A stretch of 64,000 nucleotides of DNA from an uncultured Phycisphaerales bacterium. Its GTDB lineage: Bacteria; Planctomycetota; Phycisphaerae; Tepidisphaerales; Tepidisphaeraceae. The stretch is from assembly GCA_963758525.1 (NCBI GenBank), contig CAVWVQ010000003.1, positions 864,001 to 928,000 on the forward strand, in the 5' to 3' direction. The stretch's first letter is position 1. The number at the start of each line of letters is the position of its first letter. Position numbers and translations under genes: made by a program. A model generated the notes under the pieces. The model saw nothing but the letters and a program-made list of their open reading frames with translations, was not told the DNA's origin and did not search any database. Below, piece by piece: positions 5,578 to 63,661 of the stretch.

Positions 5578-5749
5578 TTGAGACTCCTTTGAGTAATTCA
5601 CCACCGCGTCCGACGCTCCACAGCGTCAACCGGTTGATCCCATCGTCAGCAGCGCCCGAACCACGGAAGCTTGCGAAATTACTCAGAGGAGCCGAGTAAT
5701 TTTCTCGCGCAAAATAGGCGAGGATAAGCTTCGCAGCGCGCGTCCAACT

Positions 5750-6012
5750 CAACACCGGCTCTGGGGGCGTGCCCCCCGCCGCCGTTGCCGTCCTGGTCCA
5801 CGGGGAACCTGGGACTGACGGGTCTGATCGTGTCCGTGAACGACGCGGGTGGACCGGAAGAATGACGTCTTGTCCAGCACCTTCTCCTGGAAGTCTTCGA
5901 GGATCAGATAAATCACCGGCGTAATGATAGTGTGATGAACTGAGATACAGTTACTTCGCCGATGATTACTACGGGACGACGGCAGTCGGCGTCGTTGCCG
6001 ATGCCCAGGCCA
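5750..6012 (-). pseudogene. C-terminal remnant of an RND efflux permease (AcrB/MdtBC-like)
   Basis: Translates across a frameshift as GLGIGNDADCRRPVVIIG..VSQFITL / ITPVIYLILEDFQEKVLDKTSFFRS; abuts the repeat at 6013. Confidence 0.6.
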
Positions 6013-6405
6013 GTCGGCTTTGGGAGATTCACAATCAAGGCGGATTGCCGTCTGCGGAATCTGTTAGAAACAGATTGAATGGACAGTCCATCATGGACGG
6101 CGGAGAGCGCCGTCGAGGATTCTCTGGGAAGTCGAGGAATGGTCCGCACGGCGGCTCGACGCTGTCATCGATTCGGAGCCCACGCTGGAGCCGCCGAGCG
6201 GACCCTGCGCCTCGAACAGACCGAATCGTTGCCAGAGGAGAAATCGGAGGTCAATCAATGTCGCACGGGGTCGAGCGAAAATGATACGTGACGCAATCAC
6301 AACAGATCGGCGGGGACAGCCGCGGGTTCAGCACCAAGGCGCACTGCGGTTGACGACGTGCGCAGACCATGGCCGAGCGCATCGGAATCAATGAGCGAAT
6401 GGCCA
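6013..6405. repeat. ~393-bp dispersed non-coding repeat, copy 1
   Basis: GTCGGCTTTGGGAGATTCACAATCAAGG...GAGCGAATGGCCA; closely similar to 17010-17402 and 17598-17993. Confidence 0.95.
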
Positions 6406-8055
6406 GTAGAGTAGAGAACTGACCGGCCCGATTGCCGATCAGTTCTCCCTCTTCGAACCGGACAGGCGGATTTCCCGCATCCGGCTCTCACGATATCGTT
6501 CTTCTCAAGCATTCACGGACCTCACCTGTTATCACAGGGGCTGTAACCCAAGCAGATGCAGATGAGCGTACCAACTCGTCTCGCCGGTGCCCCGGTAAGG
6601 TCGTTGGCTCCGACGTTTCAGGTGACGGATCAGTCGTGTCTGCACGAAGCTGTTGATCTGGCGGAACGCGTTGCGGGGATATCCTTTGCCAAAGTAGTTG
6701 CTCCAGCCAGCCAGGTGCTCGTTGATCTGATAGATCAACGCCGGGATGGGCAGGAAGCATCGCTCCGGTCCGGTCATTTCCCGCAGCTTATCCCGTTCAC
6801 GCTGCATCGCCTTCTTCGAGGGAAAGAGGTTCAGGTAGCGGTGGGCGCCGCCTTGGCGGTCGCGGTCGTACCGGAACGTATACCCCAGAAAATCCAGACG
6901 CTCGCCCGGCTGATTCAGCTTCGCCGTACGCGTCTTGTCGCGGTTGACCGTCAGTCCAAACCGCCCTTGCAGCGTCTGTTCCACGAACGACTCGATCTGC
7001 CTGTCAACATACCTTGCCAGAATCACAAAGTCGTCGGCATACCGCACCAATCGGGCGTTTGCCCAGCGGTACGGCCCGTCAGATCGGTGGAACAGCTTAT
7101 CGAACCAATGCAGATACAGGTTGGCCAGCAATGGGGAGATGACCCCGCCCTGCGGCGTCCCCTGTTTGCTCCGGCTGGCCTTGGGCGGGTCGCCGGGACC
7201 ATCGCCCCGTTCCACGATCACCGCTTTGAGCCACATCCGGATCAGCTTCAGCACGCTTCCATCCACGATGCGCTTCTGGACACATGCCATCAGCTTCTCG
7301 TGGGGGATCGTGTCGAAGTACGACTGCAAATCCGCGTCGTACACTTCCCGCCGCCCCTGCTGGAGGTTTTCCTTGATCTCCTCCAGCGCATCGTGGGCCG
7401 AACGACCGGGACGGAATCCGTACGAACAGTCCAGGAAGTCCGCCTCGAAGATCGGCTCCACGAGCAGCAGCACCGCCATTTGCACCACACGGTCTGTGAC
7501 CGTGGGGATGCCCAATGGGCGGAGCTTGCCGTTGGCCTTGGGAATGTACACACGCTTCACCGGCTGCGCGCGGTAGGTTCGGGTCTTGAGCGATTCTTGA
7601 ATTTCGCCCAGGAATCCCGTCACGCCGTGTTCGGTGTTTCGCACCTCGTCGATGCTCACACCGTCCACGCCAGGTGCGCCGTTGTTGGCGGCCACCTGTT
7701 CCCATGCCGCACGCAATACGTCTGGCCGGCAGACCGTTTCATACAACGTGTAGAAACGGAATCCCGGCTCCCGCTTGGCTTTGAGGTATAGCTTCTGTCG
7801 CAGAAGAAAGACTTTCCCCGGCAAACCCTTGCCGTTCACCTTGAAGTGCACGGGCAGGTCGTTCGGCTCTTCCGTCCTATTCCCAATCTCTCGGGACAAT
7901 CGGGCCTCTCTTCCTTTTACATCCGCTTGATATCGTCAGGACTCCTTGGCTCCACGGGCATTACGCCGTTTCATCGCGACTATGAGCCCATCCGACTCCT
8001 CGCATGACACGCCTGATGGTTATGTCTTCCCATCCAGCGTCCGCGGTTGCCCGCC
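6406..8055 (-). mobile_element. group II intron, 5'-truncated (most of domain I missing)
   Basis: Minus strand has domain V GAGCCGGATGCGGGAAATCCGCCTGTCCGGTTC, a domain VI hairpin ending CTCTACTCTAC, and DII/DIII-like sequence at ~7900-8050; no GTGYG 5' end found. Confidence 0.85.
6532..7899 (-). CDS. ltrA: group II intron reverse transcriptase/maturase (no endonuclease domain)
   Basis: [64 protein letters not shown], maturase GWSNYF. Confidence 0.95.
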
Positions 8056-8218
8056 GAAATTGCGGCCTGATGCGGCCCTGAGCGGTCGGTCAACATTTAC
8101 TGCCAAACGCTCGCGGCCGCATTACAGTAACCCCCCCGTATAATGTCGGAAAACGTCGGAAAACGTCGGATGGATGGGTCAAAGTGGATAGTGAAACCAA
8201 TACGTTTTACTGCGACGC

Positions 8219-9052
8219 GTGTCTATGATGGGCGAGCAACCGCCTCGACCCCGCAAAGCCGTGATGAAAACGATTAGTGAAATTCGGCTGCCGTTTGACA
8301 ATGCGGCCCGCGACGCCGCGCAGATTTTTGCGGTGGTGGCGACGGTTTTGATGGCGATGGTCAGGCCGGACACCTGGCGACGAACCGTTCGGCTGGCGCT
8401 GGCCCGGCAAATCTTCCAGTGCGGCGTGGAAGCGGTTGGCTTCACGTCGGTGATGGCCGCGATCGTCGGAGTGCTGGTCGTGGTGCAGGTGCAGTTGTGG
8501 CTTGTGCGCGTGGGGCAGACAGCACTGCTGGGGCCAGTGCTGGTGACCGTGGTGATTCGCGAGCTGGGCCCGCTGCTGGCGAACCTCGTTGTGCTGGCGC
8601 GCAGCGGGACTGCCATGGCGGCGGAATTGGGGAATATGCGCATTGCCGGCGAGGTGCGGGTGCTCGATTCGCAGGGGCTCGACCCGCTGTTGTTTCTTGT
8701 GCTGCCCCGGGCATTGGGTTTTACCATCAGCGTCTTTTGTCTGGCGATCATTTTCATTCTCTTCGCGCTGGCCAGCGGCTATTTGTTTGGCGCTTTGGCG
8801 GGTCTGAAGGTTGGAGCGGTGGGGGGATTTGTCGAGAGCATCGTGCGATCGATCGGTCCAGCGGACGTTTCCAATCTGATTGCCAAGACGTTGACGCCTG
8901 GTTTGTTCTCCGGGACCATCTGCTGCATTGAGGGCTTGCGGGCCGCCGAGAGTGTCATTGAGGTGCCGCGGGCGACCTCGCGGGCCGTGCAGCGATCGGG
9001 CTTGGCGGTCTTCCTCATCATTGCTGTGGTTTCGCTGGTTACTTACCTCTGA
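8219..9052 (+). CDS. MlaE-family ABC transporter permease
   Basis: IRELGPLLANLVVLARSGTAMAAELGNMRIAGEVRVLDSQGLDP...VPRATSRAV. Confidence 0.9.
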   Translation: MSMMGEQPPRPRKAVMKTISEIRLPFDNAARDAAQIFAVVATVLMAMVRPDTWRRTVRLALARQIFQCGVEAVGFTSVMAAIVGVLVVVQVQLWLVRVGQTALLGPVLVTVVIRELGPLLANLVVLARSGTAMAAELGNMRIAGEVRVLDSQGLDPLLFLVLPRALGFTISVFCLAIIFILFALASGYLFGALAGLKVGAVGGFVESIVRSIGPADVSNLIAKTLTPGLFSGTICCIEGLRAAESVIEVPRATSRAVQRSGLAVFLIIAVVSLVTYL

Positions 9053-13084: not shown

Positions 13085-13545
13085 TCATTCTCCAGCGCCC
13101 GCTGCCAGCGCGGGAACCGCTTCCCAGGCCGATTGGTACGTTGCCTCCAGAGGGAGCGGGACATAGATGTCGGTCGTCAGGAACAGCGGCATTTCGGGAA
13201 GGGTCGAGCCGACGGAGACCGGCTCGATGAAAGCCTCCTGGCTGGCGCCGCCCATATAGGATGCGACGGTCAGCGGCCGATCCGTCGGCAGAACGAAATC
13301 ACTCGAATCCAATTCATCCCAGATCAGTTTGGCGATCCCCTGCGGGTCACGCGGGGTCGGAGGAAACGGATCGATGACGAGCAAGTGAATTCCGCCGCGT
13401 AGCTTTTGCGAAGCTTTCTCAGCGAAGGTGCGGATAGCGCCGGGCGAACGCTTGTTTCCGGGAGAAATGATTTCAATGACGGCAATCGTGCGATCGTTGC
13501 TCACGTGCCGAACGACGACTCGACTGGCCTTAATGGCGTAGGAAG
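13085..13545 (-). pseudogene. DUF4058 family protein, 5'-truncated
   Basis: IAVIEIISPGNK, GIHLLVIDPFPP, LPEMPLFL, VPLPLEATY; N-terminal half replaced by the RAYT end. Confidence 0.7.
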
Positions 13546-13569
13546 CTGTTAAGGTGACATCCACCGTTT

Positions 13570-13944
13570 TTATTTGCCTTTTTCCGGCATCTTCGGCCTG
13601 CCTCTCGGATTCAGAGTGTACTGCAGCCCCATCCGGCCCGCCATTTTCAGGGTCCAGGGATCGCTTCCCAGCGGCCGGCCACGCTCGAAGCTAAGTGCCA
13701 CCCGTTTCACGGCGGCCGGATCCATCGGCTCGTTCACCAGCGCCGTCCAGTTCCGCGGGCGGTCGATCGGCCAATCGTCGAGCAGTTGTCTCGCCAGCTC
13801 TTTCTCGCAGCCCAGGCTCGACCGGTGCCAGTCCTGCGCCCGCTCCACCATCTTCGCCCGCAATGGATTGGCTTCCACATAACGCAGCAGTGTCAGCAAA
13901 TGCCCGTCCTCCTGGACAACGAAGCTCTTGTAGCGACCCTGATA
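13570..13944 (-). mobile_element. REP-associated tyrosine transposase (RAYT/Y1) C-terminal fragment
   Basis: YQGRYKSFVVQEDGHLLTLLRYVEANPLRAKMV..AQDWHRSS...RGRPK; HUH-containing N-terminus missing. Confidence 0.8.
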
Positions 13945-14672
13945 ACCGCTTCATCCATCCAATCGTCGCTGATCTTGTCGGCCACACGCGGGTCCTCTTT
14001 GATCGCCGCGAGGTTGGCCGTGGCCATCACCAGCGTGTCGGTCACCGTCGCGGTATCGCCCGCGGCGGCATCGCACACGTTCACCGCCAGGATCGCGCCG
14101 TGACGCCGTGACCCCCTTCGGAGAGGTCCACCGCGTGCTCGGCCTTGTGGGCCAGATGCGTCGTGCCGTCCTTCATCTTGGTGATCTTCGCTTGGGGATC
14201 GCGCGGGTTGTGCCAGTCATCGTTGCTGGCCTTGTTTTTCCGCTTCTTATCCAGCTTGGCCAGTTCTTCCCGCGTGGGCGTTTCGATGCCGCTCTCTTTG
14301 GCCAGACGGGTGAGGAACTCCTGATAACCCTCGCCGCTGTCCCGACGCACGATCGATCGCATCGCCGCGTTGGCCTCCAATGTCGTGGAGTCCACGCCCG
14401 CGGTTTTTCCCTGGATCAAGTCGTGGTTGGCCAGAATCTTCAGGATGTGAGTGAACACCTCGGCGTGAGTTTCGATGTCGATCAGACGCCGCGTCCGCGA
14501 GATCGTCGAATGGTCCGGGGCGGCCTTGTTCACCGGGATGCCCAGGAACAGCTTGAGTGAACTGCTGTCATTGCAGCGCCAGTCGATCCCGCGTTCGGAG
14601 TCGATGCCCTCGAAGTAGCCCACCAGCAGGCAGCGGAAATACACGCCCGGAGCAACGCCCGGCCGCCCGCCC
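13945..14672 (-). mobile_element. IS1182-family (DUF772) transposase fragment
   Basis: GRPGVAPGVYFRCLLVGYFEGIDSERGI, PDHSTISRTR, VDSTTLEANAAMRSI, LAHKAEHAVD; truncated at both ends. Confidence 0.8.
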
Positions 14673-16860: not shown

Positions 16861-17009
16861 CTTGACGGGGAAAGCTGGGGCCTGGACGCTCTGATTGCAA
16901 ATTCGGGCGGCAGTGAACGTCGCATCGCGGATGGTCATTTCAGCAAGGAGTCAGAAGTTCGGACAATCGGGCTGCGGCCCAGGCGCAGAGCAATTCCGAC
17001 GGACGGTCC

Positions 17010-17538
17010 GTCGGCTTTGGGAGATTCACAATCAAGGTGGATTGCCGTCTGCGGAATCTGTTAGAAACAGGCTGAATGGATAGCTCATTATGGACGGCGG
17101 AGAGCGCCATCGAGGATTCTCGGGGAAGTTGAGGAATGGTCCGCACGGCGGCTCGACGCTGTCATCGATTCGGAGCGCACGCTGGAGCCGCCGAGCGGAC
17201 CCTACGCCTCGAACAGACAATCGTTGCCAGAGGAGAAATCGGAGGTCAATCAACGTCGCATGGGGTGCAAGCGAAAGTGATACGGTGACGCGATGACAAC
17301 AGATCCGCGGGGACAGCCGCGGGTTCAGCACCAAGGCGCACTGCGATTGACGACGCGCGGAGACCATGGCCGAGCGCGTGGGAATCAATGAGCGAATGGC
17401 CACAAAAAACACAAAAACACAAAAAGGAAATAGAGAGGCCACGCGCAACAGCAGAAAGTGAATCGGAAGCTGCTCTCGTCCTCAGCCTCTCTTTTTTTTG
17501 TGTCGTTTGTGCTTTTTCGTGGCAATCACTCTTTTGGG
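17010..17538. repeat. ~393-bp repeat copy 2 plus ~125-bp imperfect terminal hairpin
   Basis: Homologous to 6013-6405; continues GCCACAAAAAACACAAAAACACAAAAAGG...TTTTGTGTCGTTTGTGCTTTTTCGTGGC (17399-17523). Confidence 0.95.
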
Positions 17539-17591: not shown

Positions 17592-17597
17592 ATTCGC

Positions 17598-18131
17598 GTC
17601 GGCTTTGGGAGATTCACAATCAAGGTGGATTGCCGTCTGCGGAATCTGTTAGAAACAGGCTGAATGGATAGCTCATTATGGACGGCGGAGAGCGCCATCG
17701 AGGATTCTCGGGGAAGTTGAGGAATGGTCCGCACGGCGGCTCGACGCTGTCATCGATTCGGAGCGCACGCTGGAGCCGCCGAGCGGACCCTACGCCTTTG
17801 GAACAGACGGAATCGTCGGCAGAGGAGAAACTGGCGGTTAATCAATGTCGCACGGGGTCGAGCGAGAATGATACCGTGACGCAATCACAACAGATCGGCG
17901 GGGACAGCCGCGGGTTCAGCACCAAGGCGCACTGCGATTGACGACGCGCGGAGACCATGGCCGAGCGCGTGGGAATCAATGAGCGAATGGCCACAAAAAA
18001 CACAAAAACACAAAAAGGAAATAGAGAGGCGACGCGCAACAGCAGGAAGTGAATCGGAAGCTGCTCTCGTCCTCAGCCTCTCTTTTTTTTTGTGTCGTTT
18101 GTGCTTCTTCGTGGCAATCACTCTTTTTGGG
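17598..18131. repeat. ~396-bp repeat copy 3 plus terminal hairpin
   Basis: Direct, diverged repeat of 17010-17538; hairpin at 17990-18115. Confidence 0.95.
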
Positions 18132-18460: not shown

Positions 18461-18623
18461 GAACGAGAGGGGCTGACGTGCGGGCTGTTTCGGACAGATT
18501 TGTCGCCAACCTCCGGGATGTAAAGAAACGTCAAAGTTTGTAAAGGAGAGCGGATATGGGGGCCATTGGAATTCGCATTTCAAGTAGCGGATTGCACATT
18601 GCAAATTGGGTATCATCGCGCTG

Positions 18624-19655
18624 ATGGCTGACAGTTATCAATCCATCCTCGAGGCACTGGCGAAGTGCAGGAACGTGCTGATCACGACGCATGTCCGCCC
18701 CGATGGGGATGCGCTGGGGAGCAGCGCGGCGCTGGCGATGGGACTGCGGAATAAGGGAATCGCGGCGAAGGTGTTGCTGCTGTCGCATTTGCCGACCAAG
18801 TATGCGTTTGTGTTCCGGGACAATGAGATTGCTCATGTTGACGCTGAAAGTGGGTGGCCGGGCGGGTTGTCGCTGGATGCGTTTGACGCGCTGCTGGTGG
18901 TGGATACGGGGACATGGTCGCAGTTGCCGGGGCTGCGCGAGCGGGTGGAGCATTGGCGGGGGCCGAAGCTGGTGGTCGATCATCATCTGACGCAGGAGAA
19001 CTGGGCGGACGCGAAGCTGGTGGTGACGGAGGCGGCGGCGGCGGGAGAGATCGTGGCGGAGCTGCTGGATCGATGGGGCGTGGAGCTGGACCGGCCGATC
19101 GCGACGGCGCTGTATCTGGCGATCGCCAGCGATACGGGGTGGTTTCAGTTTTCCAACACGCGGCCGTACACGCTGCGCCTGGCGGCACGGTTGATGGAGG
19201 TGGGCGTCGATACCGACAGGCTCTACCAGGCCCTTTACCAGAATGAGCGGATGGAGAGGATCGCGCTGCAGACGCGGGCGCAGGGGTCGCTGGAGCTGTT
19301 GTGCGACGGCCGGCTCGCGGTGATGCGGATTTCGCGGAAGGATTTCGAGGAGACGCACGCGGGCGTGCCGGATACGGAGAATCTGATCAATATTCCGCTG
19401 CAGATTCGGACGGTGGAGGTGTCGCTGGTGTTCACCGAGCCACGGGAGCCGGGCCCGGTGCGGGTGAGCCTGCGGAGCAAGGGGCAGGTCGACGTGGCGC
19501 GGTTCGCGGAGAAATTCGGGGGAGGCGGGCATGCGCGAGCGGCGGGGTTGAAAGTAGAGGGGACGCTGGCGGAAGTGCATGATCGGGTGGTGAGGGCGAT
19601 GGCGGAGAGGATAGGGATGGAGGGGCGGGAGGCACGAAGGCACGTAGGCACGTAG
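18624..19655 (+). CDS. nrnA: DHH/DHHA1 phosphoesterase (oligoribonuclease/PAP phosphatase)
   Basis: HVRPDGDALGS, VVDT, VVDHH, SDTGWF, VSLRSK, FGGGGHARAAG. Confidence 0.92.
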   Translation: MADSYQSILEALAKCRNVLITTHVRPDGDALGSSAALAMGLRNKGIAAKVLLLSHLPTKYAFVFRDNEIAHVDAESGWPGGLSLDAFDALLVVDTGTWSQLPGLRERVEHWRGPKLVVDHHLTQENWADAKLVVTEAAAAGEIVAELLDRWGVELDRPIATALYLAIASDTGWFQFSNTRPYTLRLAARLMEVGVDTDRLYQALYQNERMERIALQTRAQGSLELLCDGRLAVMRISRKDFEETHAGVPDTENLINIPLQIRTVEVSLVFTEPREPGPVRVSLRSKGQVDVARFAEKFGGGGHARAAGLKVEGTLAEVHDRVVRAMAERIGMEGREARRHVGT

Positions 19656-19743
19656 GCACGAAGGGTGAGGAAGGGGATTGGAAACGGAGGGGGAATTGCA
19701 AATTGGGGATTGCAAATATTGCAAATTGCAAATTGCAAATTGG
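19631..19743. repeat. composite short repeats (GGCACGWA)n + (ATTGCAA)n
   Basis: GGCACGAAGGCACGTAGGCACGTAGGCACGAA followed by AATTGCAAATT... runs. Confidence 0.85.
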
Positions 19744-19813
19744 AACTACCGCGAAGGGCAAGCTACTTCGACACCGTCGGCGAGTTCCAGATCATGCGAT
19801 GTCGGCAGTTCCG

Positions 19814-20201
19814 CCTTCGTCCCTTCGTCCCTTTGTCCCTTCGTCCCTTTGTCCCTTCGTCCCTTTGTCCCTTCGTCCCTTTGTCCCTTTGTCCCTCCGT
19901 CCCTTCGTCCCTTCGTCCCTTTGTCCCTTCGTCCCTTCGTCCCTCCGTCCCTTCGTCCCTGTGTCCCTGTGTCCCTTCGTCCCTTCGTCCCTTCGTCCCT
20001 TCGTCCCTTCGTCCCTTCGTCCCTTCGTCCCTTCGTCCCTTCGTCCCTTCGTCCCTTCGTCCCTCCGTCCCTTCGTCCCTTCGTCCCTTCGTCCCTTTGT
20101 CCCTGTGTCCCTCCGTCCCTTCGTCCCTTCGTCCCTTCGTCCCTTCGTCCCTTCGTCCCTTCGTCCCTCCGTCCCTTTGTCCCTCCGTCCCTCCGTCCCT
20201 T
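19814..20201. repeat. ~390-bp octamer tandem array (CCCTTCGT and variants, ~48 units)
   Basis: Units CCCTTCGT, CCCTTTGT, CCCTCCGT, CCCTGTGT between convergent genes. Confidence 0.95.
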
Positions 20202-20238
20202 CCCCCTTCCATCACCTTCCACCCTCCACTCACCCGAT

Positions 20239-38993: not shown

Positions 38994-39076
38994 GTGCTTC
39001 CTGCTCGGTTGGTGTCCTTACTATTGTATCGTCGGAGAGCCGGGAAAGTTCGTGAGGAAAAGAGGGGGGATAGATA

Positions 39077-39197
39077 AGGCACGGAGGCACGGAGGGGCAA
39101 ATTGCAAATTGAGGATTGCAAATTGCAAATTGAAAGAACTGGGAGCCCTTGGGCGTGCTGGCGTTGTCTGGCCAAATTGAAACTTGCAAATTGCAAG
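39077..39197. repeat. composite short repeats (GGCACGGA)n + (ATTGCAA)n
   Basis: Same two-motif module as 19631-19743. Confidence 0.85.
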
Positions 39198-39244
39198 CTC
39201 GCGGTCCGCGCACCGGCTGTTTTGGTGCCGCCGTGCCCACCCAG

Positions 39245-39594: not shown

Positions 39595-39662
39595 GTAGGG
39601 CGGGATTCATCCCGCCGATTTGTTGGCCGGCTGAGAAAACGGCGGGATGAATCCCGCCCTAC
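39595..39662. repeat. GTAG-type REP doublet (REPIN-like)
   Basis: GTAGGGCGGGATTCATCCCGCC ... GGCGGGATGAATCCCGCCCTAC; related single copy at 56468-56490. Confidence 0.85.
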
Positions 39663-44333: not shown

Positions 44334-44441
44334 GGTTAGCCGCGACGCGCAGCGGAGCGCGTATTCGTGCGAATTACGCAACGGGCGAAATCACGCTGTT
44401 TCTCGTTCGAATACGCGCTCCGCTGCGCGTCGCGGCTAACC
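44334..44441. repeat. perfect 34-bp inverted repeat (REP/REPIN-like)
   Basis: GGTTAGCCGCGACGCGCAGCGGAGCGCGTATTCG and its exact reverse complement 40 nt downstream. Confidence 0.92.
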
Positions 44442-45286: not shown

Positions 45287-46450
45287 ATGACTCAGGCTTC
45301 TCCGCAGGCGGCAAAGTCAGGCGGTCTTCAGGGGGTTGTCGCGGTACAGAGCGATATCTGTTTCATTGACGGCATGGCCGGGCGGCTGGTCTACCGCGGC
45401 TATGAAATCGCGGACCTCGTCGACAACACCAGCTTTGAGGAAACCGCTTACCTGCTGTGGCATGGAAAGCTTCCCAATGCCGCCGAGCTGGCGGAGCTTC
45501 GCGGGCAGCTTGGCGCGGCGACGTCGCTCCCGCCCCACGTCCTGGCGGTGCTGAAGAGCCTTCCGGCCAAGACGCAGCCGATGGACGCGCTGCGAACCGC
45601 TGTCAGCGCACTGGGCGCAATCGATCCGGATCTCGAACACAACGACCCGGCGGCGAATCTGCGCAAGGCGATCGGACTGACCGCGCGGTTCCCAACGATC
45701 GTGACGGCGTTCCATCGCCTGCGCAACGGGCAGGATCCGGTCGCGCCGAATCCGCAGTTGTCGATCGCCGCCAACTTCCTGCACATGATGACCGGCAAGC
45801 CCGCTGATGAGACCATCGTCCGCGTGCTGGACGGCGCACTGGTGCTCCACGCGGAACATGGCATGAACGCCAGCACGTTTGCCGCGCGCGTCACTGCCGC
45901 CACGCTGGCGGACATGCACGCTTCGGTCACTTCCGCCACCGCCGCGCTCAAGGGGCCGCTGCATGGGGGCGCCAACGAAGCCGTCATGCAACTGCTGCTC
46001 AAGTGCGGCGATGCCGACACCGCGGTCAAAACCGCTCAAGACATGCTCGCCAAGGGGGACAAGGTGCCCGGCTTCGGCCATCGCGTTTACCGCACGTTCG
46101 ACCCCCGCGCCACATTCCTCCGCAAGATGAGCAAGCAACTGGGCCAGGCGGCGGGCAATCTCAAATGGTACGAAATGTCGGAGAAGCTGATTCCGATTCT
46201 GAAAGATTCGCTCGGCTCGAACGGTCAGCCGCGCAACCTCAATCCCAACGTCGACTTCTTTTCCGCAAGCGCCTACTACACCATGGGCATCCCCATCGAC
46301 CTGTTTACCCCCATCTTCGGCGTGGCCCGCGTCGCCGGATGGTGCGCCCACATCATGGAGCAGCACGCCAACAACCGGATCATCCGTCCGACAGACGACT
46401 ACAATGGGCCGTTCGGATTGAAGGTTGTCCCGATCGCCGAACGGAAGTGA
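45287..46450 (+). CDS. gltA: citrate synthase family protein
   Basis: LHAEHGMNASTF, GPLHGGAN, GFGHRVY, NPNVDF. Confidence 0.9.
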   Translation: MTQASPQAAKSGGLQGVVAVQSDICFIDGMAGRLVYRGYEIADLVDNTSFEETAYLLWHGKLPNAAELAELRGQLGAATSLPPHVLAVLKSLPAKTQPMDALRTAVSALGAIDPDLEHNDPAANLRKAIGLTARFPTIVTAFHRLRNGQDPVAPNPQLSIAANFLHMMTGKPADETIVRVLDGALVLHAEHGMNASTFAARVTAATLADMHASVTSATAALKGPLHGGANEAVMQLLLKCGDADTAVKTAQDMLAKGDKVPGFGHRVYRTFDPRATFLRKMSKQLGQAAGNLKWYEMSEKLIPILKDSLGSNGQPRNLNPNVDFFSASAYYTMGIPIDLFTPIFGVARVAGWCAHIMEQHANNRIIRPTDDYNGPFGLKVVPIAERK

Positions 46451-46456
46451 GTGGGA

Positions 46457-46547
46457 AGGCACGGAGGCACGAAGGGGAAAGGCAAACGCGGTCTGACTCT
46501 CAATTGAGATTTGCAATTTGCAGTTTGCAATTTGCAATCCTCAATTG
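46457..46547. repeat. composite short repeats (GGCACGRA)n + (TTGCAAT)n
   Basis: Third instance of the two-motif module, heptamer part inverted. Confidence 0.85.
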
Positions 46548-61674: not shown

Positions 61675-63041
61675 AGTCAGGAGTCAGGAGTCAGGAGTCG
61701 GAAGTCAGTGTCCCGAGTTAAAGGATCCAGTTCATAACCCATTCGCGTCTCCCGAATCTGCTCTTGCTTCTCCCTTCTGACTTCTGGCTCCTTGCTTCTG
61801 ACTCCTTTAATCTGGGAGTCAGGAGCCAGGAGTCAGGAGCCAGGGGTCAGTGTCCCGAGTTAAAGGATCCAGTTCATAACCCATTCGCGTCTCCCGAATC
61901 TGCTCTTGCTTCTCCCTTCTGACTTCTGGCTCCTTGCTTCTGACTCCTTTAATCTGGGAGTCAGGAGCCAGGAGCCAGTGTCCCGAGTTAAAGGATCCAG
62001 TTCATAACCCATTCGCGTCTCCCGAATCTGCTCTTGCCTCTCCCTTCTGACTTCTGGCTCCTTGCTTCTGACTCCTTCCCCGATTCCCCTTCTGACTTCT
62101 GGCTCCTTGCTTCTGACTCCTTCCCCGATTCCCCTTCTGACTTCTGGCTCCTTGCTTCTGACTCCTTCCCCGATTCCCCTTCTGACTCCTGGCTCCTTGC
62201 TTCTGACTCCTTCCCCGATTCCCCTTCTGACTTCTGGCTCCTTGCTTCTGACTCCTTCCCTGATTCCCCTTCTGACTTCTGGCTTCTTGCTTCTGACTCC
62301 TTCCCTGATTCCCCTTCTGACTTCTGGCTCCTTGCTTCTGACTCCTTCCCCGATTCCCCTTCTGACTTCTGGCTCCTTGCTTCTGACTCCTTCCCCGATT
62401 CCCCTTCTGACTTCTGGCTCCTTGCTTCTGACTCCTTCCCCGATCTCCCTTCTGACTTCTGGCTCCTTGCTTCTGACTCCTTCCCCGATTCTCCTTCTGA
62501 CTTCTGGCTCCTTGCTTCTGACTCCTTTAATCTGGGAGTCAGGAGCCAGGAGTCAGGAGCCAGTGGCTCCTTGCTTCTGACTCCTTCCCCGATTCCCCTT
62601 CTGACTTCTGGCTCCTTGCTTCTGACTCCTTCCCCGATTCCCCTTCTGACTTCTGGCTCCTTGCTTCTGACTCCTTCCCTGATTCCCCTTCTGACTTCTG
62701 GCTCCTTGCTTCTGACTCCTTCCCCGATCTCCCTTCTGACTTCTGGCTCCTTGCTTCTGACTCCTTCCCTGATCTCCCTTCTGACTTCTGGCTCCTTGCT
62801 TCTGACTCCTTCCCCGATTCCCCTTCTGACTTCTGGCTCCTTGCTTCTGACTCCTTCCCCGATTCCCCTTCTGACTTCTGGCTCCTTGCTACTGGCTCCT
62901 TCCCTGATTCCCCTTCTGACTTCTGGCTCCTTGCTTCTGACTCCTTCCCTGATTCCCCTTCTGACTTCTGGCTCCTTGCTTCTGACTCCTTCCCCGATTC
63001 CCCTTCTGACTTCTGGCTCCTTGCTTCTGACTCCTTCCCTG
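61675..63041. repeat. 1.37-kb hierarchical tandem array: three ~130-140-bp units, then ~21 copies of a 45-bp unit
   Basis: 45-mer CCCCTTCTGACTTCTGGCTCCTTGCTTCTGACTCCTTCCCCGATT; larger unit carries (GGAGTCA)n arms around a core GTGTCCCGAGTTAAAGGATCC... Confidence 0.95.
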
Positions 63042-63157
63042 AACCACTTCGTGCCTTCTTTCACCCACTTTTTTTGCCGACATTTGTGGAGTTCTTTGTT
63101 CACTGGAACAGGAGCACGTGCGTAAAATAAGCCGGTCGCCATCTTAAGGAGCCTTGC

Positions 63158-63661
63158 ATGACAGGTGCTGCTGATCACTCCGCGGTTCTTCCAAATGTCT
63201 CCGCTCAATCCGCAATGCGAATGGCCTGGGGTTGTTGGTTGTTTCTGCTGGTCTTGCCATTTCTGTATTTTATCTACGTGATTTGGACGCTGATGGGGGA
63301 GGAAACCAGCGGACCGCCGCCGCACTCCAGCCAGGGGTGGTTTCTGATGTCGATGATTTATCTGATCGTTGCTGTGCCGTTGTCGTTCTTTGGGCGCAGC
63401 AGGCTGTTCAAGGCATATTGGACCGGCAAGCCGGTGGAACCGAAGAAATACCTCGTGGGAATGCTCGCGATGTGGCTGACACTGGAAGTCGGCGGGCTGC
63501 TGGCGCTGACAGGATGCCTGGTGGATCACAAGCCGATGCCCAATCTTCTGCCCGCGCTGGTCGCCTTCATGTTCTTCACCACTCTCTGGCCCAGCGGCCG
63601 TGCGATGACCCGCACCACAGGCGACTCCGAAGACGCCGGAGTCTACGAGGAACCCAGGTGA
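63158..63661 (+). CDS. hypothetical membrane protein (4 TMs)
   Basis: AAGGAG RBS, four hydrophobic segments. Confidence 0.75.
   Translation: MTGAADHSAVLPNVSAQSAMRMAWGCWLFLLVLPFLYFIYVIWTLMGEETSGPPPHSSQGWFLMSMIYLIVAVPLSFFGRSRLFKAYWTGKPVEPKKYLVGMLAMWLTLEVGGLLALTGCLVDHKPMPNLLPALVAFMFFTTLWPSGRAMTRTTGDSEDAGVYEEPR

Follow-up and report, generated by a model that had tools for sequence, protein, structure and literature searches.

The stretch of DNA analysed here (64,000 nucleotides; hereafter the window) contains a group II intron whose 3' end lies in an intergenic repeat, at the point where two other copies of the repeat run on into a palindrome. This raises the question of how such an intron finds its target, through the hairpin of the palindrome or through the sequence of the repeat. 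Our best reading is sequence-guided homing by a lineage that has been retargeted time and again from one subfamily to another within a single repeat superfamily. In particular, we consider it reasonably probable that the window holds a truncated and likely dead class F-type copy of a lineage that finds the pyrimidine arms of heptamer palindromes by pairing of RNA with DNA and not by hairpin recognition.

The intron remnant and its host repeat

The features of the locus are collected in Table 1. The Rfam match to RF00029 (52.9 bits, E 1.5e-7) stops exactly at 6406, the last base of the intron. The ORF of the reverse transcriptase (RT) is placed in domain IV, as in group II introns, and matches TIGR04416 at 388.9 bits (cut-off 300). 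Pfam found RVT_1 and GIIM only in its 455 amino acids, and the Pfam and profile search of this RT gave no match to an endonuclease family. The catalytic triad, the bulged A and the AY 3' end of group II intron domains V and VI are all present. An earlier note on this DNA had described an AGC triad, a full-length domain V and the lack of an endonuclease domain, and was right on each.

Table 1 Intron and host-repeat features in the window. Positions are those of the forward strand.
Feature	Position	Strand	Remarks
Group II intron, 5'-truncated, class F-type	6406..8056	-	Ends from the RF00029 match end and from blastn against L082
RT/maturase ORF, intact	6532..7899	-	455 aa, YADD, without endonuclease domain
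Domain V	6455..6487	-	33 nt, AGC triad (6486-6484), 5-nt GAAAU loop
Domain VI	6408..6452	-	Long stem of 19 bp, bulged branch A at 6412 (z -6.1)
Host repeat copy 1, remnant	6013..6405	+	Intron 3' exon on the minus strand, begins TGGCC
Host repeat copy 2	17009..17523	+	Longer at both sides in other genomic copies
Empty palindrome 2	17399..17523		Purine arm first, pyrimidine arm second; minus-strand target TTTTTG^TG at 17403/17402
Host repeat copy 3	17597..18115	+	
Empty target palindrome 3	17990..18115		Minus-strand target at 17994/17993

The intron has lost its 5' end, as the earlier note had recognized, although the remnant reaches 8056 and not 8055 as it had stated. The blastn alignment to L082, the closest relative (87% amino-acid identity) and the sister of the window RT in the tree, begins at window position 8056, which is nucleotide 318 of that intron, with 86% identity over 1652 columns. 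About 317 nt of domain I are absent relative to this 87%-identical relative. The missing segment carries EBS1, EBS2 and EBS3 in relatives, and the window copy has no complete domain I with a 5' GUGYG and EBS elements. Because these roughly 317 nt of the 5' end were lost with all target guides, the window copy is likely dead, that is, unable to splice or move. No piece of the lost domain I was found elsewhere in the source genome (G000) by blastn with the domain I of four relatives as queries, nor did the queries used find a full-length or ORF-less partner intron there; the RT occurs once in this genome. Next to the broken 5' end (8057-9052) lies the upstream region of a divergent MlaE permease gene. 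We infer that an insertion was followed by a deletion, which took the intron's 5' end together with the upstream exon. A terminator scan of 5600-8400 gave no signal above chance. Two short contigs match the window up to 8057 and then diverge, a weak hint that near-identical introns may continue past the break.

The junctions of the three repeat copies read as the earlier note had written them. Copy 1 has ...GAATGGCCA|GTAGAGTAGAG at 6405/6406, and copies 2 and 3 have ...GAATGGCCA|CAAAAAACAC at 17402/17403 and 17993/17994. The three copies align up to GAATGGCCA, after which copy 1 continues into the intron and copies 2 and 3 into a palindrome of 125-126 nt. In copy 1, the palindrome and the remaining repeat are gone together with the intron's 5' end. 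The cut on the intron strand is TTTTTG^TGGCC, and it falls four paired bases inside the palindrome stem; an insertion at the base of the hairpin had been proposed, which is correct as to the palindrome but not as to a cut after the stem. Both empty palindromes have DNA-fold z-scores of -3.8 to -5.6 on both strands. The two empty sites had also been noticed rightly, whereas the length of 393 bp given for the repeat was too short: the repeat is longer and is found genome-wide, with 20 matches at E<1e-20 in the source genome. Among the 16 copies there that span the junction, 15 are empty.

The upstream exon had been deduced from the paralogous repeat copies, with a proposal that full-length relatives be checked for pairing of EBS1 with exon ends like TTTTTG. 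The closest relative agrees on both counts: L082 has the exon TTTTTG (only 6 nt, up to the contig end), an EBS1 loop CAAAAA that matches it, and A as EBS3. Since the guides of the window intron are lost, its own predicted pairing is taken from this relative. These observations also bear on whether the window junction could have arisen when an intron fragment was joined to a repeat by chance or by recombination, or could reflect an error of assembly. The missing 5' intron end and 5' exon would suit such an origin, and the public sequencing runs include none that contains half of the 64-kb stretch, and no RNA run. However, the join is exact at the last base of the intron, and the guides of L082 predict exactly TTTTTG^T; we regard an origin of this kind as highly improbable.

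The source genome has 145 pairs of a purine arm and a pyrimidine arm within 150 nt, compared to 5 when the sequence is reversed. Each arm is built of 7-nt units spaced 8-10 nt apart, and the purine arm comes first. They flank all four GxxExxY (PF13366) genes of this genome, one of them with the GCCACAAAA subtype that is also the window target, and five of six PF13366 genes in four other genomes. In another genome, G061, the repeats are present and the same search gave no PF13366 match. The GxxExxY gene may be what spreads the repeats; judged by title and abstract, no literature linking GxxExxY or PF13366 to repeats was found.

Other repeats were seen in passing. At 19726-20220 an 8-nt unit (CTTCGTCC-like) is repeated in a long tandem array that resembles an expanded pyrimidine arm of the host repeat superfamily, and an array of a 45-nt unit occupies two blocks at 61675-63180. 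More intergenic repeat or palindrome families lie at 18577-19754, 39067-39212, 46447-46546, 39595-39662 and 44334-44441, and include ATTGCAA arrays, GGCACGAA arrays and two near-perfect palindromes. Upstream of repeat copy 2 there is mobile-element debris (13085-14644) with DUF772 transposase and DUF4058 fragments. Positions 13570-13899 are reminiscent of the C-terminus of a RAYT, but had no Pfam match.

Class of the intron

The window RT falls within a clade of 28 rows (SH-aLRT 100) that is sister to introns labelled class F in the literature (PMC3552965, Table S2; PMC8919778, Table 3), namely Ni.ha.I1, the intron of plasmid SH-PL62 and a Microvirga intron (SH-aLRT 95 and 92). The class F references in the tree are 40-43% identical. 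Joining the clade with three C-type RTs, which were recognized by a CGC domain V in the collected loci and not by a published label, was rejected by the AU test (p-AU 4.9e-6). The earlier note had placed the intron in a lineage other than IIC, and the RT phylogeny bears this out.

The structural features point the same way. There is no DNA-binding or endonuclease domain in the 455 amino acids, the domain V loop has 5 nt and the domain VI stem is long; according to PMC3753933, the 5-nt domain V loop marks IIE and IIF and the long domain VI stem marks IIF. Class C features are lacking: the triad is AGC instead of CGC, domain V has 33 nt, and the target does not have the class C arrangement of a stem-loop upstream of a 3-4-bp IBS1 with no IBS2, the IBS1 here being of 5 bp and lying inside the stem. 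The class trees were quick ones without bootstrap and with few references per class, and the window intron is placed as class F-type by an RT tree from which the core F types Ge.ur.I1, So.us.I2 and Pe.th.I2 are absent.

The source genome also has a second family of group II introns, with an RT 40% identical to the window RT, an AGC triad and a full-length domain V. It falls outside the C-type clade in the RT tree. Five identical 3' ends of this family are found at CGGTTTAG^TTCAAC (contig C1, 202.0-209.2 kb; C2:270179; C3:3035337), and the 3' exons there can be folded into hairpins resembling attC. C1:197972-198829 encodes an integron integrase that scores above the TIGR02249 cut-off. The family is possibly a non-IIC intron that targets attC sites.

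Guides, targets and the hairpin

We collected 46 genome loci, the best 80 of 283 metagenome loci and four further loci, and parsed these 130 for junctions. A usable 5' end was available in 82 of the 130, and 67 introns were left after removal of 15 redundant rows. Position -1 of the exon is G in 66 and position -4 is T in 65 of these 67 introns, and the 3' exon starts (+1/+2) with CG or TG in 86 of 93 cases. The target is thus the heptamer NTNNG^YG, with G[CT]G 1-3 nt upstream in 50 of 67, and at least seven common IBS1 variants of this one heptamer type occur. The flanks of the relatives, which occur in many soil bacteria, support the idea of the earlier note that the lineage homes into intergenic palindromic repeats; the palindromes resemble those beside GxxExxY nuclease genes. 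It had expected a family of GCCAC(A/G)AA...TT(C/T)GTGGC hairpins; the palindromic repeats were found, and the target is wider than that family. The full-length relatives did not turn out to insert at unrelated, non-hairpin sites, nor did the RT group with class C.

The guides follow the targets. In 40 of 67 introns, the 5-nt EBS1 is fully Watson-Crick complementary to the five bases that end the exon (51 with G-U pairs allowed); 5000 shuffled EBS1:IBS1 pairings averaged 7.6, with a maximum of 17. EBS3 forms a Watson-Crick pair with the first base after the cut (IBS3, +1) in 52 of 54. On a FastTree of 61 rows, from which L130 was left out and in which L067 and L070 have no place for want of a usable ORF, EBS1 changed at least 39 times, with hardly any change leading outside the repeat heptamers. 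Three positions of EBS1 had median p values of 0.008, 0.004 and 0.016 in sign tests on independent pairs, and EBS3 had 0.008. The comparison of the relatives' sequences shows that guides have changed together with their targets many times on this tree. For EBS2, an AC[AG]C loop was concordant with the middle base of G[CT]G in 42 of 46 introns; after allowing for kinship the signal is not significant (median p 0.06), and the same base co-varies equally with position +1, so that the two are confounded. In a fixed register, none of the exon positions from -6 to -21 stood out as the partner by mutual information, and the signal emerges only when a spacer of 1-3 nt is allowed. We consider it likely that EBS2 pairs with the upstream G[CT]G.

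Sequence-guided homing would then work as follows. EBS1 would pair with the last five exon bases and EBS3 with the first base past the cut, and the EBS2-like AC[AG]C loop would bind G[CT]G in the unit before, 1-3 nt upstream. Fixing the invariant bases (G at -1, T at -4, G at +2) would fall to the RT protein. The intron would reverse-splice into single-stranded DNA at the replication fork, as is established for endonuclease-less introns, and its reverse transcription would be primed there (PMC4424553). Because each palindrome has several tandem units, offered on both strands, it would supply many harmless intergenic sites, and a change of one or two bases in a guide would shift the intron to another repeat subfamily. 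Tandem intron arrays were observed at L095, L096 and L157, where the 3' end of one intron is followed by a single repeat unit and then the next intron's 5' end, as expected if successive units each serve as targets.

The genome G061 allows a closer look, since it holds 13 intron copies with 81-84% amino-acid identity, of which 12 have 1973 nt and one is internally deleted. All 13 are inserted at GCGCCTCTG^CG. The modelled pairings, GCG-N-CTCTG^Y, fit 168 empty sites in this genome, of which 51 have the 11-mer used by the copies. Outside the repeats this 11-mer is nearly absent (51 matches, compared to 8 in the control), and so sequence alone can produce the association with hairpins. That 168 sites fit and only 51 are of the used type indicates that the choice is narrowed by something further, be it structure, selection or contacts with the protein.

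If selection were the main factor, the intron would home loosely at any match of 9-10 bases and be purged wherever it lands outside intergenic repeats, so that the apparent preference would partly be survival bias. The 168 fitting sites compare to 153 for a reversed-pattern control and are mostly chance sites, the relatives L046, L047, L109, L117 and L120 lie outside tandem repeats, and crude ORF calling puts each of the 13 G061 copies between ORFs. However, the bases that do not vary across RTs of 60-100% identity (G at -1, T at -4, G at +2) match the repeat unit, and the EBS1 changes stay almost wholly within the repeat heptamers. Moreover, C at -6 and G at +2 are common to the 13 G061 copies; the modelled pairings demand neither. 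We find loose homing followed by purging unlikely. As a separate observation, the insertion of L047 (around 2007), at CTTTG^TG, is apparently within coding sequence and has no repeat array.

The earlier note had gone further and had proposed hairpin-directed targeting similar to that of IIC introns. This was not supported, since IBS1 and IBS3 lie inside the stem and 29 of 52 sites fail the upstream-pairing test. Passing this test took upstream pairing of 10 or more among the final 14 exon bases, and it was applied to the 52 sites outside G061 with at least 80 nt of exon. It was passed by 23 of the 52, compared to 21-40 of 150 in six motif-matched background samples, an enrichment of hairpin context of about twofold. 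Two or more tandem pyrimidine units were present at 38 of the 52 sites, whether or not the other arm was, and at 12-52 of 150 in the background.

A structure-assisted mechanism, in which the RT or the ribozyme needs an upstream stem-loop, cruciform or slipped hairpin as in IIC introns and the guides only pick the unit, could draw on this enrichment (23 of 52 sites, and 11 of 13 in G061). Sites with IBS1 and IBS3 only are common yet unused (17 in 220 kb, of which 1 is paired), and tandem units permit slipped folds that would possibly free the last unit. Against it, a full hairpin would bury IBS1 and IBS3, the cut being inside the stem, L040 (in G061) has no upstream unit, and the RT is not class C. 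Occupied sites also showed no excess of the partner arm when identical 11-mers were compared in G061. At least one upstream purine unit was present at 12 of 13 occupied and 39 of 42 empty sites (p=1.0), and two or more upstream units at 12 of 13 and 30 of 42 (p=0.16). This comparison used 42 of the 51 empty sites, the 9 omitted ones adjoining occupied sites, and is low-powered, with merely 3 of the 42 being without any upstream unit. We consider a requirement for structure unlikely, and structure may still have a helper role in sequence-guided homing.

No replication-strand bias was shown in G061, where the orientations on contig C2 look blocky. The codon-corrected GC skew was positive on both sides of 4 of the 13 copies, negative on both sides of 6 and discordant for 3, and it flips sign many times along C2. 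The origin and terminus of G061 were not located by dnaA, by tRNA genes or by one 8-base strand motif. In the source genome the GC skew is too small to orient the window. About 25 same-strand tRNA genes are clustered within 3 kb in G061 (C2:3699152-3702078), and two ORFs with weak similarity to DnaA, likely IS21 IstB, are dispersed over C2 and C3 in about 40 copies. These dispersed ORFs and the sign changes of the skew suggest recent inversions or misjoins.

Comparison with known systems

Class F introns (IIF; g2-g5) share with the window lineage the absence of an endonuclease domain, a length of about 1.97 kb, the 5-nt domain V loop and the long domain VI. In Ge.ur.I1-1, a class F intron, IBS1-like AUUCG occurs three times, once at the splice site and again 9 and 19 nt upstream of it, with CGUGU as IBS2 (PMC3753933). 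The IBS1 of L101 is the same AUUCG. These tandem sites fit a heptamer array, on a comparison of Ge.ur.I1 with our lineage made through the IBS1 and IBS2 motifs printed in PMC3753933. That paper treats the tandem sites as alternative splice sites and the locus as putative non-coding sequence, and the parts of PMC3753933, PMC3552965 and PMC8919778 consulted name neither a palindromic repeat family nor retargeting among subfamilies. Nine class F copies are listed in the genome of Geobacter uraniireducens. PMC3753933 describes alternative 5' splice sites in Ge.ur.I1-1, and also an EBS2 which is conserved although splicing does not need it. Tandem repeat units may explain the former, and a likely use of EBS2 in homing may explain the latter.

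Class C introns insert after intrinsic terminators or in attC sites according to PMC4424553 and PMC7923331, the latter of which also notes non-IIC introns beside attC sites. They resemble the window lineage in lacking an endonuclease domain, in their intergenic position near inverted repeats and in a short EBS1. The window lineage differs in the AGC triad, the full-length domain V, the 5-nt EBS1 with a probable EBS2, the cut inside the stem and an upstream arm that is often missing.

Targeting of inverted repeats by ordinary homing already has a precedent. RmInt2, a class D intron of Sinorhizobium meliloti GR4, homes into the inverted repeats of ISRm17 (PMC4615759). It is likewise non-IIC and endonuclease-less, recognizes an inverted repeat on both strands via EBS1, EBS2 and EBS3, and has a relaxed EBS2 with a 2-nt linker. 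RmInt2 is one intron with one IS end, whereas the clade studied here covers several phyla, a palindrome superfamily and at least 39 guide switches.

A review gives three target specificities for bacterial group II introns and assigns plain homing to every lineage except class C (PMC4424553). The clade might be taken to represent a fourth target class, next to homing sites, terminators and attC sites, as a dedicated parasite of the GxxExxY palindromic element with a scaffold hard-wired to NTNNG^YG, guides swapped per subfamily, and a cruciform or a GxxExxY nick supplying the open strand or primer missing in an intron without endonuclease; we think this distinctly unlikely. The open literature searched gave no description of class F introns tracking a palindrome superfamily. 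Although the window copy itself is merely a remnant, its clade reveals a homing target of class F-type introns, a widespread and little-described palindrome superfamily tied to an uncharacterised nuclease, and it offers, in nature's own series, many cases of retargeting by means of a very short guide code.

On the side of the host repeat, the closest parallel is with REP and REPIN palindromes, which surround RAYT transposase genes and are, in the case of REP, targeted by insertion sequences. Both are dispersed intergenic palindromes that flank a small nuclease gene and serve as landing sites for mobile elements. The host repeat differs from REP and REPIN in consisting of arrays of a 7-nt unit, and the genes found beside it in the PF13366 search are GxxExxY (PF13366, PD-(D/E)XK) rather than RAYT.
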